Source: Squalus acanthias
Lineage: Eukaryota
Length of the DNA: 64,000 nt
NCBI GenBank assembly: GCA_030390025.1
Contig: CM059438.1
Span: forward strand, 27,404,001-27,468,000
Reading direction: 5' to 3'
The notes below the pieces were generated by a model. That model saw only the letters and a program-made list of their open reading frames with translations. It did no database searches and was not told the DNA's origin. Positions 20,580-64,000 of this stretch are shown here, piece after piece; within the stretch, counting starts at the first letter, position 1, and the number at the start of each line of letters is the position of its first letter. The position numbers and the translations under genes are program-made.

Positions 20580-21464
20580 AATAGAACAAGGGTGCTTTGT
20601 ACTCTTAGGTGAACATTATCAGCCACTGGTTTAACTGAGAGTTTGGCACAAAAGTATTAAATACATTAATTCCACTGCACATTAATATATCTTATTGGAA
20701 AATTAAAATATATAAAACTTGTGTTTCCTTTTGTTGTTGGGGAAGGATAGGACAAATTCAATTTCACTTTCCCACAGCACTAATAAACTTAAATTTGCTC
20801 TAACTCTCCAGAATAGAAAGCAACAGCAGTTTTATTTTGTGACTTAAAATTGAAACCAGCTAAATAAAATACAGAGTTCAGCGAGTGAGTCCAAGGCAGT
20901 AATTTAATCCCAGGGTTCAGTTAATATTCATAAATCACTGATGTCATCTGAACACCTTGATTAGATTATAGTCTTGTTACTCTTCAATCTTGGGTATCTA
21001 TTTTTCTAAGATATAATTGTGTGTTGTTTATGCATGTCAAGGTGCCAGGTTGTGATAGGAAATGAAAAACTATTTTTTTCCATTTTTCACCTAGTGACAT
21101 TGTCCAAAGCTTCCAAGGTGGAGCTCTTCCATAATTTCTTGAACAAGAGGCCACAGTTCTTCCTATCTTAGGGTGTGAGCTCTAACCCCTGAAAGAGGAG
21201 CACATTTATCAGTGCATCGCCATTGTGCTGGCTGGACTACAGTGGCTGTGTAACCTGAACCCACTACTCACCTCTGTAGCACCTGGTGACTCCACTGGAT
21301 GGGTAGGCTTAAAATTGACCCCATTGTTTCAAATTAATGGCTAATTTAGATCAGAGAGTACTTTTACTTGCTGGACCCTTGTCTGCTGGAATAAGGATTG
21401 GACAATCAAATCTCACTTCAATTATGGTATCGTGAGGAAATAGTCTGGGTATTATATAAATAAA

Positions 21465-21636
21465 AACAGAAAATGCTGGAGATACTCAGCAGGTCAGGCA
21501 GCATCTGTGAAGAGAGAAACCGAGTCAACGTTTCAGGTCGATGACCTTTCGTCAGAACTGGAAGAAAGCAGGAAATGGAACAGATTTTTAAGCAAGTGTA
21601 GGGGCTGGGAAAGCGGGGGGGGGGGGAGGGGATGAA
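21465..21636 (-). mobile_element. Penelope-like element terminal fragment
   Basis: Same sequence family as 62277 and 63276; on the minus strand a pyrimidine-rich tract precedes a hammerhead motif; possible TSD ATAAATAAA at 21456-21464 and 21637-21645. Confidence 0.75.
21523..21559 (-). ncRNA. Minimal type I hammerhead ribozyme motif
   Basis: AGUU-CUGACGA-A-AGGUC(AUC)GACCU-GAAAC-GUU-GACU: both core boxes, 5-bp stem II, palindromic ACGU stem III, 4-bp stem I with one G-U pair. Confidence 0.7.
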
Positions 21637-23001
21637 ATAAATAAAGTTGATTTGTACACCTTGAGTTACCTGATGTAAATGCAAACTTATTCATGACAGA
21701 TTTTTCTTTGCTCAAGACCCTTTCAACACTGCATGTCACATAACATAACCTCTTTTTGAATATAATTTTGTATAGGATAATATATTAATTGTAAGATATT
21801 AATTATTTTCACATTGCTGTTACCTTGCATATACAATTCTGATTATACCATTGACGATTTTTAATATTTTCAACTGTCATGCCCTAGTGGCAGGTGTTAA
21901 ATCTTGCACCATTATCTGTACATCGGGGATGTTCTCATACAGCTCAAGAGTGTTAAGAGTGAGGCAAAAGAAATGCCAGTTGGTGTTACAACAGTCTATA
22001 CTTCTGTGAAGTACAATATGTTAGAAAAAATAAAATTGAGTATACGAAAATGATGGACAAGAAAAGACCAGTTGCTCCATTGCGACTGCCCTCACAGTCA
22101 TGGTGCCTAAAGCATCATGATTCACAACAGCCCCACCCACCAACAGCCATGTCATCTCCTGGGAGGCAAAACAACAGATTTTTAAAAAATGGCCAAATTA
22201 GGGAGAAAGAAATCTGGAAAATTCCTCTCTGACTCCCTTAGGCGATCAAAGCTAGTCCAGGATCAACATTAGTCCAGCGCAAAAACATTAACAATGACAA
22301 CTCGGGACTGGATATTCCTCCTTGGCCGGTTTACCACTGGAATGGCACTGAAACTGCACTCCTGCCTGGCCTGTGTTACACTTCCAAGAACCATTTGATT
22401 TTTCTCCCTGCACCTGCATTACATAGTCATGCTGGACTCCCATCGATATTAGCTTGGGGGGTGGGAGGGGGAGAAAAATCTGGTGCTGCTGCAGCAACAG
22501 AAAGGACCGGGGCAGCCAGTTTTGTATCTGCCTCAATGCCGTGTCTGAGGCTGGTACTACTTCAGGGTACCAAGCCCACAAATTTAAAATCAGTTCGGGC
22601 GTTGTTGTCTGAGGGAAGGAAGCCCACGCAGGGCATGATCCAGGCTCTGGAAGAAGGTGGACTTGGCAATAAATGACATCTCCCCACAGTGACAGAAGAG
22701 GTTAACTGACCTGGCCAGAGCGTCCACCATAACCAGAAGCAGTCCTAATTTGTAACAATGCACTGTAATAAGCATCTTTCCTAGTTGCAGCCACCTTGCT
22801 ATACTGCATTAAACGTCATCTGTAACTTTGGAGCAACATGCTGAAGGTACCAAAATAACCTCTGCATCCCCTTCCTTCTCCTGTGAGTGTTCCTTTACTC
22901 GCAGTATATAAGTAGGAGACAGTGTGCTATGTATCTCATTTCCAGCATCTGCTCTTGGCCCCATTTAAGGAATGCTTCCTGGTTTCTGGATTGCATTCCG
23001 T

Positions 23002-60804: not shown

Positions 60805-61750
60805 AGGACTTGCATTTATATGTCACCTTAGCACAACCTCAGGATATCCCAGAAGCACTTTCTAGACAATGAATTTTGAAATGCAATCACTTTCATTATG
60901 TAGGCAATGATGACCGCCAACTTATGCACAGCAAGATCACACAAACAGCAAATAAGATTAATGGCTGGTTCAATCTGTTGTTAGTGTTTTCAGAGGAAGA
61001 ATGTTAACAGCTACACTGGGAGAAGTCCCTGATTTTCTTTAAGCTCTTTATAAAGCGCTGGTTAGGCCACAACTGGAGTATTGCATCTAGTTCTGGTCAC
61101 CACACTTTAGGAAGGATGTGAAGGCCCTTGAGAGGGTGCAGAGGAGATTTACCAGAATGGTTCCGGGGACGGGGGATCTTAGCTACAAGGACAGGTTGGA
61201 GAAGCTGGATTTGTTTTCATTAGAGCAAAGGAGGTTGAGGGGTGATTTGATAGAGGTGCACAAGATTATGACGGGTTTGGATAGGCTAGACGGGGAAAGG
61301 CTGTTCCCACTAGTTGATGGTACAAGGGCTAGGGGACACAGATTTAAGGCAAGAGATACAGGGGGGGATGTGAGGAAAAACTTTTTTACGCAGCGAGTGG
61401 TGAGGACCTGGAACTCGCTGCCGACGGAAGTGGTAGAAGCGGACACACTCAATGTTTTCAAGGTGAGACTGGATAGGCACTTGAGGGAAATAAACTTGCA
61501 GGGCTACGGGGATACAGCGGGGGAATGGGACTGACTGGATTGCTCTACAGAGAGCCGGCACAGACTCGATGGGCTGAATGGCCTCCTTCAGTGCCGTTAT
61601 GACTCTATGACTAATGTCATGGGATCTTTTACATCCCCTGTTCAGGTATACAGAGCTATGGTTTAATATTTCCTCAAAAGTCGTAACCTTTGACACTTTA
61701 GCAGTCTTTCATTCTGCATTGAAGTGTTACCCTAGATTATGTGCGCAAGG
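60805..61750 (-). mobile_element. Deu-domain SINE split by a CR1 insertion (parts 60805-61041 and 61612-61750)
   Basis: GACTTGCATTTATAT..TGCACAGCAAGATCACACAAACAGCAA on the left and CATGGGATCTTTTACATCC..CCTAGATT on the right are collinear SINE reverse complement. Confidence 0.8.
61044..61611 (+). mobile_element. CR1 3' fragment
   Basis: KALERVQRRFTRM..GYGDTAGEWD*, tail TATGACTCTATGACT. Confidence 0.96.
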
Positions 61751-62276
61751 AAATGCATAGCAACTGGTCAGCTTGCAAGTGACATCAGTGTGTTGGCCGT
61801 CCCAGCTCCGATTACTCGATGTTTTTTTTTTACACTGCTTTCTTGGTGTGTGTGTAACCCTGTGTGGCTGCTTGCAGCTCTCCTGCAGCCCAATGACTCT
61901 TCAGCTATACCAAAGATGTAAATGATACTCTTACGATTTATTTCCTCTTGTTAATGATCAATTAACAGTTTCAGCAAGTGAAAATTCCAATCCCACAAGT
62001 TCTACTTGCAAAGTAGGAAATCTGATTTATTTTTTTTAAACACCACCCATTACAATGCTTCTTCCTTCAGCCAAAAGGGTGAAACAGTGAGATCTCGATT
62101 CTCTCCTGGCCGGTATTAATCTGTATCTTATTGACAGGCAATGTGTATGCTGCAAAAATGTTAGTTTTAGCTTAGAAATGGTTACTTTAATTTCGTCACA
62201 AAAGTTTAAAAACTAGCTGCATTCAGAATTCATGTCCCAACCTAACTTGATGCAGTGCTGCAAGGATTACTAGCCA

Positions 62277-62505
62277 AAATAACAACAGAAAACGCTGGAA
62301 AAACTCAGCAGGCCAGGCAGCATCCGTGGAGAGAGAAAGAGAGTTAACGTTTCAGGTCGATGACCTTTCATCAGTTCTGATGAAAGGTCATCGACCTGAA
62401 ACGTTAACTCTCTTTCTCTCTCCACGGATGCTGCCTGGCCTGCTGAGTTTTTCCAGCGTTTTCTGTTGTTATTTCGGATTTCCAGCATCCGCAGTATTTT
62501 GCTAT
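62277..62505 (+). mobile_element. Fold-back Penelope-derived insert with a perfect 98-bp inverted repeat
   Basis: Arms 62277-62374 and 62377-62474 are exact reverse complements with a 2-nt loop; 14-bp TSD AGGATTACTAGCCA at 62263-62276 and 62506-62519. Confidence 0.9.
62373..62409 (+). ncRNA. Minimal type I hammerhead ribozyme motif
   Basis: AGUU-CUGAUGA-A-AGGUC(AUC)GACCU-GAAAC-GUU-AACU; predicted cleavage after 62405. Confidence 0.7.
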
Positions 62506-63275
62506 AGGATTACTAGCCAGTTTGGTCTTTGAGTAGATAGCTTAAAGAAGGAGCCAAGTTATACAATTTCAATAAAAATAACTCTGTTATATATGTCTTA
62601 TCTGTTTTTTTTTAAATTTAGCTGACTATTATTCAAATCCACAACTCCTGTGATTGTTTGGGGAGTATTTATGAGCCTGACCTGTTCAATATTCGGAGTC
62701 AGGGAGCTCCTGCAGTTGGCAGGACTATGAGAATCCAGGGCACACTATCTAAATTTACCTCGATATTAGATCCAGCGAAGATACTTTTGAGGCCACAGGG
62801 AACGAAGACTCGCCGACGAGTAGTCTAAAACACATAAGCAAAGATGGTAGACTTGGAAAGGCAGAACAAACAAACCAAAATATAACCGTGTGTTTCTGCC
62901 AGGTGAGATTGGTCCTGTGCACTATTCCATCTGGCATTTCAGCTGAGATTAAAGGCTTGAATTTGAACTCAGCTCAAGCAGCAGTAACTAAAACTAATTT
63001 TATTCATAGCTGTTAAGGGTCAAACGTGAAATTTAATTTTCAACAAACTGTTCAGTCCCGATTAGACATAAACTTAGGGGTGGTTTTGAATTGCATGCTT
63101 ATCAGTACCAGCTCCTGTGAAGCTTGAGTTTGAGGTTAGAGGTAGTAGTATCCTTTATTTGTACTGACAAGCACCATATTAAAAATGGGTGCACATGCTA
63201 TGGAACCCAAATGTGTTCTCCTGCACTGAATTCTCACTGAATGAGCAATGGTTCAAACAGACTTGATATAATTAC

Positions 63276-63473
63276 AAGAGCAAAATACTGCGGATGCTGG
63301 AAATCCGAAATAACAACAGAAAACGCTGGAAAAACTCAGCAGGCCAGGCAGCTTCCGTGGAGAGAGAAACAGAGTTAATGTTTCAGGTCGAAAGGTCTTC
63401 GACCTGAAACGTTAACTCTGTTTCTCTCTCCATGGATGCTGCCTGGCCTGCTGAGTTTTTCCAGCGTTTTCTG
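63276..63473 (-). mobile_element. Fold-back Penelope-derived insert lacking the hairpin tip
   Basis: Same family as 62277 in the opposite orientation; 13-bp TSD TTGATATAATTAC at 63263-63275 and 63474-63486; centre lacks CTGATGA. Confidence 0.9.
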
Positions 63474-64000
63474 TTGATATAATTACCTACTGAATGCCCT
63501 CACTGAAAACCGCTCAGTTATTGTGCTCAAGACAGTTGGGCCAAACTTTCCTGTTAGTTTTTACAGAACATTACTGTAGCGTGCACCTCGTTTGTAACAC
63601 GCAAAATATGTGTCCTGAGGGGGGGAGGTTATTGGAATAACGGTGCCCTTATATTTAACTGATTGAAGATTTATGTGAACTCTGATTTTTAAGTAATGTA
63701 ACATAATAAAGTTATAGAATGACATATTACTGGAAAAGCACCATTTTTAAGAACTGTTGTCACTTGACCTCTACTATCGATTTTTCGTGGCAAGTATAAA
63801 TTCCGAGCATCTAAACCGGAGAGTCACTAAGCTTGCTTCTGCTCAATGAATAAAAAATTGAATTATCTAATAATTTGAATTAAGCAACATAAATAACGGA
63901 GTAAAGTGGGACTTTTAATGCCGAAAATCTTGAATTATCAGATAATTTGCATCAAGTGAATAAGGAGTAGACTGTAGCAGGGTTTACTCAACAAATTATG

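Follow-up and report, generated by a model that had tools for sequence, protein, structure and literature searches.

A 229-bp hairpin in the Squalus acanthias genome as a doubly truncated, inverted end of a Penelope-like element, probably primed from both target strands

The window analysed here is a stretch of 64,000 nucleotides of Squalus acanthias DNA (contig CM059438.1). At 62263-62519 it holds a hairpin insert flanked by a 14-bp target-site duplication (TSD; AGGATTACTAGCCA, no strand assigned) at 62263-62276 on the left and 62506-62519 on the right, which on sequence comparison at the locus cannot be extended further. The 229 bp between the duplications (62277-62505) begin with an inverted copy of the end of a Penelope-like element (PLE) on the minus strand, without tail (62277-62374), and continue with a direct copy on the plus strand (62377-62474), recognised by its identity to an intact copy of the element, L188 (L-numbers such as L188 and L074 are labels of individual element copies fetched from the genome). 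Both copies span +1 to +98 of the element, +1 being the C of CUGAUGA at 62377, and the two arms are perfectly complementary over 98 bp around a loop of 2 nt, TT, immediately 5' of CTGATGA. The original prediction had given the 14-bp TSDs, the 229-bp insert and the 98-bp perfect arms with coordinates that were exact on recheck. What it did not describe is a 31-bp PLE tail on the plus strand (62475-62505), which falls outside the palindrome and lies between two start sites of reverse transcription (RT), site A at about +97 and site B at about +129 to +134; the outer edge of the inverted arm sits at site A, the upstream of the two.

The self-complementary joint CAG-TT-CTG (62372-62379, plus strand) is, judging by the intact copies, native PLE sequence just upstream of the hammerhead core, and it exists in TT and AA versions; its CAG and CTG likely served as microhomology for end joining. 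The right arm is open in frame from the ATG within CTGATGA, and 62380-62505 on the plus strand reads, by sequence and frame, as a stump left from the 5' end of the PLE open frame. It has 42 codons (MKGHRPETL...VFCY) and is a gene fragment, not a gene. The element had been taken to be non-coding, a description that fails on these first 42 codons of the PLE frame. The long duplex expected if the hairpin is transcribed agrees with the predicted RNA fold, which at -196 kcal/mol (z -29, 0 of 200 shuffles as good) is far beyond chance.

The minimal type I hammerhead motif (62373-62409, plus strand, recognised by sequence) has a stem I of 4 bp (AGUU/AACU), the core CUGAUGA at 62377-62383, a stem II of 5 bp at 62385-62397 with A-U as first pair, and GAAA at 62398-62401; it has no stem III, its centre is the palindromic AACGUU, and cleavage is predicted after 62405. 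As proposed from the letters, the motif is that of a PLE hammerhead, with the core on both strands and stem I on the plus strand only, where AGUU is there to pair with AACU. The short stem I, the extra base after A9, the missing stem III and the palindromic centre are shared with the minimal hammerheads of metazoan PLEs, as their architecture is given in the available part of PMC4209133, whereas the first stem II pair, A-U here and G-U in other subfamilies, differs from the conserved G10.1-C11.1 of that text. Cleavage of the hammerheads of relatives is described there and in the accessible text of PMC11167929 as low or protein-dependent. An Rfam scan of the 64-kb window gave no match at the gathering score, hammerhead included, and stems I and II together are predicted to be unfavourable in the monomer (+11 kcal/mol against -7.3 kcal/mol for an alternative fold). 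Dimer cleavage is reportedly the subject of a paper by Lunse et al. Two intact copies (L187:664-792 and L189:664-792) have GUC for GUU at the predicted cleavage triplet; L028 and L030 carry this allele in both arms, L020 and L021 in one arm each.

Further transposon remains lie in the window. Another hairpin, inserted independently and belonging to a related subfamily (63263-63486, minus strand, by sequence), has 13-bp TSDs at 63263-63275 and 63474-63486, the opposite orientation, and a different joint that lacks CUGAUGA. A third copy, of another subfamily (21458-21640, minus strand), is a non-inverted, tail-less, 5'-truncated end in which the native stretch 5' of the hammerhead is visible. 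The region 61091-61600, which contains an open stretch of 147 aa, is probably the 3' end of a CR1/L2-type LINE. Within the insert, a stem is predicted at 62426-62494 between GGAUGCUG in the arm and CAGCAUCC in the tail, enclosing site A; the fold of this region is overall no better than that of shuffles (z -0.56).

The right arm and tail are identical at 128 of 129 positions to the first 129 nt, counted from the hammerhead, of L188, which carries a frame of 971 aa starting at the ATG within CTGATGA. Walking outward from element copies, a GIY-YIG domain is found upstream and RT downstream. In Pfam the L188-type protein of 971 aa matches RVT_1 (E 2e-5) and GIY-YIG (E 6e-4), neither of which reaches its curated cut-off, and its nearest Atlas clusters (0.98) carry HTH_animal and RVT_1; a PDB sequence search with the intact protein gave no match, and Pfam gave no domain match on two broken element fragments. 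The best 81 of 61,131 candidates scored in the search for intact copies had no stops inside the match. The prediction that the element would be linked to an RT plus GIY-YIG frame, and that a Penelope-like RT/endonuclease rather than the machinery of a MITE had made it, is supported.

By the definition in the consulted part of PMC8557442, EN+ PLEs are marked by DKG and by a cysteine pair placed between GIY and YIG (CCHH type). The intact protein contains DKG (KPADKGG) and YIDD, as well as a CXXC inside GIY-YIG, VYCIRCSRCGLLYIG, with histidines downstream, which gives the two cysteines of the CCHH type. Other EN+ PLE features present are the hammerhead in the pLTR, recognised as a motif, pLTR-ORF-pLTR partial tandems, an inverted 5'-truncated copy, a tail at one end that falls within the 30-40 bp usual for the group, and a TSD. 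The linker between RT and nuclease has CX4CXXC (CTRRRCYTC at aa 837), and since a CX2-5CxxC linker defines the Neptune/Nematis clades in the same text (PMC8557442, in part), this motif, taken alone, suggests that the partner is of Neptune/Nematis type.

The hairpin is one of many. At least 40 dispersed near-full-length copies were found as the best 40 of 775 candidates in the 3.7 Gb genome, six of which match all 229 bp at 100%; over the central 172 bp, 30 copies are identical. Of 30 copies fetched, 26 have their own exact TSD of 13-16 bp (mode 14 bp, 16/30), and the other four comprise one with an 18-bp TSD, one with a mismatch and two within a tandem repeat. Dispersed near-full-length copies, most with an exact TSD of their own, make an assembly artefact unlikely as the origin of the palindrome. 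In three DNA runs, which may derive from the source sample, flank contigs enter the element in the expected orientation by 16-29 bases, less than the bridging threshold of 31 bases, and so lend weak support; no empty allele of the insertion site was present among the joint matches listed for DNA-run contigs. A MITE moved by a DNA transposase would account for the long terminal inverted repeats and for the narrow range of TSD lengths. However, the 31-bp tail on the right means that the palindrome is not terminal, the element ends are ragged on either side in the 30 fetched copies instead of precise, and an RT-GIY-YIG frame begins in this sequence. Given the identity to an intact PLE the MITE reading is refuted, and with so many dispersed copies, each with its own TSD, we regard MITE and artefact together as extremely improbable.

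A sample by position was drawn from the 3,309 exact matches to a 28-base piece of the tail: 90 copies from the first 98 matches on contig C1, where two of the listed matches fell within neighbouring fetched stretches. These 90 copies form a continuum of 5'-truncated inserts from less than 50 bp to more than 1.3 kb, and 18 of them are short hairpins, 159-248 bp long where a TSD was found, which by rough extrapolation (18/90 x 3,309) would mean about 660 short hairpins among the exact tail matches. The 18 short hairpins have 16 different joints; CAG-NN-CTG occurs in L074 only, so that a fold exactly at CTGATGA, once thought to be a constant feature, is present in 1/18, and a +2/+11 joint is common to L062, L084 and L086. 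Among 31 hand-picked inverted copies, chosen because an inverted arm adjoined the direct copy and ended, on its outer side, within the DNA fetched (which left aside L064, L087, L094, L110, L114 and L140, with the inverted part off-stretch or nested), the outer end of the inverted arm was at +93 to +105 in every case (31/31) and never included the tail. The inverted arm is often longer than the direct arm, for example in L063, L106, L078, L124 and L109; of the direct copy, L063 and L106 retain nothing but the tail.

We consider the insert to be almost certainly a truncated, inverted PLE insertion made anew at this site, and, with a probability of roughly 0.7, a doubly 5'-truncated head-to-head PLE end built by RT that was primed on both target strands after nicking. 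In support of this we observe the identity to the intact element, the TSD, the tail, the variable joints and the two loop orientations described below, and from them we infer steps of nicking, priming, stopping and joining. The GIY-YIG domain would nick the two target strands about 14 bp apart; the 3' end of the top strand would prime at site A (about +97, giving no tail), and at site B (+129 to +134, tail included) the primer would come from the bottom strand, with RNA of the same source element as template in both cases. The one RNA segment could be copied twice by strand displacement, from two repeat units or from two RNAs. Both cDNAs would halt on reaching the hammerhead or shortly beyond it, at a length of about 100-135 nt, and their 3' ends, each ...CAG-AA-CT(G), would pair via CAG/CTG around a 2-nt A-A mismatch and be extended, with repair or replication leaving TT or AA. 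The product, without the upstream pLTR and nearly all of the ORF, is likely a dead end. The protein of an Anolis PLE, from another clade than this element, is reported in the available text of PMC11167929 to nick and extend both target strands in vitro and to begin RT at two internal positions, one at each end of the tail; the start of the ORF lies within the hammerhead, whose cleavage requires the protein and is dispensable for insertion.

If the mismatch is resolved either way, two primers should give TT and AA loops at a ratio near 1:1, a prediction that preceded the loop test. The query of this test was tail-less and symmetric and returned 30 exact 172-bp palindromes, with loops that relative to the tail were TT in 17 and AA in 12, one being tail-less. 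L201 and L202 are one duplicated site, and the corrected TT:AA ratio of 16:12 gives p 0.57 against 1:1; in a second haplotype group (n=17) there were 10 TT, 6 AA and 1 other. Both TT and AA were found with each tail allele and each core allele, the alleles used for this comparison (+5, +100) being CpG sites which can recur. The tail-less copy, L222, is a hairpin without tail on either arm that has a 15-bp TSD and both ends at site A (1/30).

The two arms of a copy carry the same allele at 132/141 polymorphic sites, whereas exchanging arms at random among loci gives an agreement of 0.63 (max 0.77, 2000 shuffles), and 3 of the 9 disagreements stem from two short misaligned overlaps. Arm agreement together with differing joints implies that both arms derive from one source and that the joint is made anew each time. 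In 2/30 close copies (L020, L021) one arm differs from the other at a non-CpG site whose allele also occurs in intact copies, a number too small to prove separate templates. The variant of the arms relative to 63366, taken earlier as a sign of copying from one arm to the other, is a frequent subfamily allele (C in 49 and G in 33 direct arms, 82 of the 90 sampled copies covering the site), so its presence in both arms points to one source and not to arm-to-arm copying as such, and in many copies the arm without a tail exceeds the other in length.

High arm concordance suits a different origin just as well, namely self-priming fold-back, in which a strand turns back at a short palindrome and copies itself, the endonuclease then trimming at site A. 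This reading includes a hybrid with two primings followed by the snapping back of one cDNA, which results in the same sequences. Palindromes at inverted PLE junctions have been read as self-priming (Arkhipova et al. 2013; PMC3846280, part of the text), and in the present data several joints are small hairpins, such as that at +2/+11, and L074 and L062 have symmetric, private-looking variants. However, fold-back from a tail-bearing cDNA yields only sense loops of the TT type, and AA is about equally common; it also cannot produce a left arm that exceeds the right in length, in conflict with the five copies named above, and it does not fit a direct part made of tail alone or the tail-less ends, which fall where non-inverted copies end. 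A 2-nt loop on a 3-bp stem is moreover a poor primer. On balance we think fold-back improbable, to be kept in mind beside priming from both target strands.

Far less likely still is a non-autonomous hairpin family, retrozyme- or SINE-like, that is transcribed and re-inserted whole by the PLE protein. The six copies identical over 229 bp and the 30 over 172 bp would be natural products of such copying, and sites A and B, needed by the protein, are kept. The same arm sequence is, however, present in long and intact copies, so identity requires no master hairpin. Nor do TT and AA with each tail and core allele, or 16 joints in 18 hairpins, fit the copying of one unit, and the retrozyme-like unit of the original prediction, spreading itself, is not supported, because fold points differ and both loop orientations occur on each haplotype. 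No derived variants of the left arm alone were common to copies, one allele in 2/30 excepted; the duplex would probably bury the protein-binding region, as inferred from the fold and the accessible text of PMC11167929; and tandem repeats and a canonical hammerhead, as in the retrozymes of PMC7229834 (in part), are lacking. Copying of the hairpin as a unit is therefore largely refuted.

Short copies stop at the hammerhead in excess. Within -7..+33 there were stops in 26/75 short copies at risk, against 25/405 pooled in nine other bins of about 40 nt (Fisher p 2e-10, approximate since bins share copies); the count is based on 80 terminal copies, 10 of the 90 having been dropped because they run on into the ORF. 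Among 50 long copies examined, 11 were without the 5' part and 15 stopped downstream, and of the 24 left, which reach the upstream hammerhead, none stopped in -7..+33 (0/24; one at -8, one at +38). The contrast between short and long copies has p 3e-4, or 3e-3 with the -8 copy counted, some of the long copies being in tandem arrays that possibly grew as DNA and the second batch having been chosen for long frames. Stops in short copies and none in long ones indicate that the stop concerns the hammerhead adjoining the start sites.

A hammerhead that blocks any passing RT is contradicted by the 0/24 long copies stopping in the region, and an RNA that always starts at about -4 (initiator-like CAGT) by the fact that none of the 24 stops there. 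Unique flanks joining at -4, -3 and -2 were seen in 63-110 contigs per row among the matches listed for DNA runs, and a minor transcript start near -4 is possible. The stop may come from a protein footprint, a minor transcript start or occasional cleavage. Use of CAG|TT as a splice acceptor has a precedent in D. virilis (PMC4209133, PMC2377424, both in part); no recurring upstream exon was found at solo 5' ends of the sampled copies, and no CAG|TT splice joint among the matches listed in contigs of four runs guessed to be RNA. The ribozyme cut was also considered as the fold point and rejected, since the predicted cut lies about 30 nt downstream; 4/80 terminal copies (L068, L104, L142, L143) start at +30 to +32, near that cut.

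One may speculate that each hairpin preserves the imprint of the PLE integration complex, in which a two-fold protein would hold two RNA ends paired via a dimeric hammerhead, with RTs at sites A and B halting at the bound ribozyme; we consider this rather unlikely to be right. If true, it would account for the pairing of A and B (31/31), the near 1:1 ratio of loops, the restriction of stops to the first hammerhead (26/75 against 0/24) and the few at +30 to +32, and the minimal hammerhead would gain a structural role in integration for which cleavage is unneeded.

The insert is mostly an ordinary product of a known class and no new ribozyme element. An inverted copy, a direct copy, an optional tail and a TSD are the architecture published for Pen2a_Av, where inverted and direct pLTRs are so arranged (PMC3846280, with an overview in PMC8557442, as far as these were available). 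The likeness extends to the head-to-head inverted 5'-truncated copy, the one-sided tail (31 bp here), the pLTR with first ORF codons and the palindrome at the junction. In contrast to Pen2a_Av, the direct copy is here also cut, to about 130 nt, so that the insert is a MITE-sized hairpin, and the TSD is 13-16 bp compared with 8-10 bp in the rotifer examples of the same texts. With PAc, a Poseidon element of Anolis carolinensis (PMC11167929, in part), it shares the ORF start inside the hammerhead and two internal end points about 30-40 nt apart that bound the tail, with a stem-loop covering the region, whereas the CX4CXXC linker of the partner is absent from Penelope/Poseidon. The available text of the PAc paper, supplementary figures aside, describes no hairpin insertions or hammerhead stops. 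Pairs of minimal hammerheads on opposite strands are described in Schistosoma at distances of 100-700 bp (PMC4209133, in part), while the two motifs abut here. The metazoan non-LTR retrozymes of PMC7229834, in the part available, are likewise of about 230 nt with a type I hammerhead and a TSD of more than 4 bp; they are non-coding head-to-tail tandem repeats with canonical hammerheads that are expressed as circles, in contrast to the single head-to-head unit with a minimal hammerhead found here, a coding piece of the PLE itself.

The proposed mechanism also has a counterpart outside PLEs. In twin priming of L1, both ends of the cut target serve as primers on the RNA of the element, and the outcome is an inversion with a microhomology joint within a TSD. 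The present copies resemble this in the two primed ends and the microhomology-joined inversion within the TSD, and differ in that the cDNAs usually overlap by about 98 nt from two fixed internal starts, whereas those of L1 cover different stretches. Judged by listings and abstracts, the mostly open-access full-text literature covered, Repbase and Dfam aside, has no paper on twin priming in PLEs, TT/AA loop symmetry or hammerhead truncation; such copies may appear in the supplements of PMC11167929 and PMC4209133. The origin of the inverted repeats and tails of PLEs is called undefined in the consulted part of PMC8557442, and hundreds of young joints together with intact 971-aa copies in one genome provide data on their formation. 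In annotation, PLE stumps can be mistaken for MITEs or ribozyme elements, and perfect 100-bp duplexes, if many are present in transcripts, could feed ADAR or small-RNA pathways.

Some further copies deserve mention. L184 and L190 have open frames of 1,004-1,009 codons in which the hammerhead ATG is ACG, and since they are otherwise intact, translation of the frame may in practice begin at the ATG at +52. Intact copies occur in head-to-tail arrays with a period of about 3.2 kb (G000:C4:15717038-15724988 and G000:C10:128290723-128295475), which are likely the sources of present activity. L208 was considered as a hairpin heading a full-length copy, which was ruled out as it ends at +185; its extension, L242:684-964, is an AA-loop hairpin whose direct arm reaches +185, past site B, and suggests an extra RT start site downstream of site B. 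Finally, L070, L076, L083, L085, L110 and L133 (oriented about 1300-1900) are short permuted tandem pieces that stretch 80-170 nt past the tail into the ORF and are then directly followed by another pLTR piece, which look like template jumps between short cDNAs.
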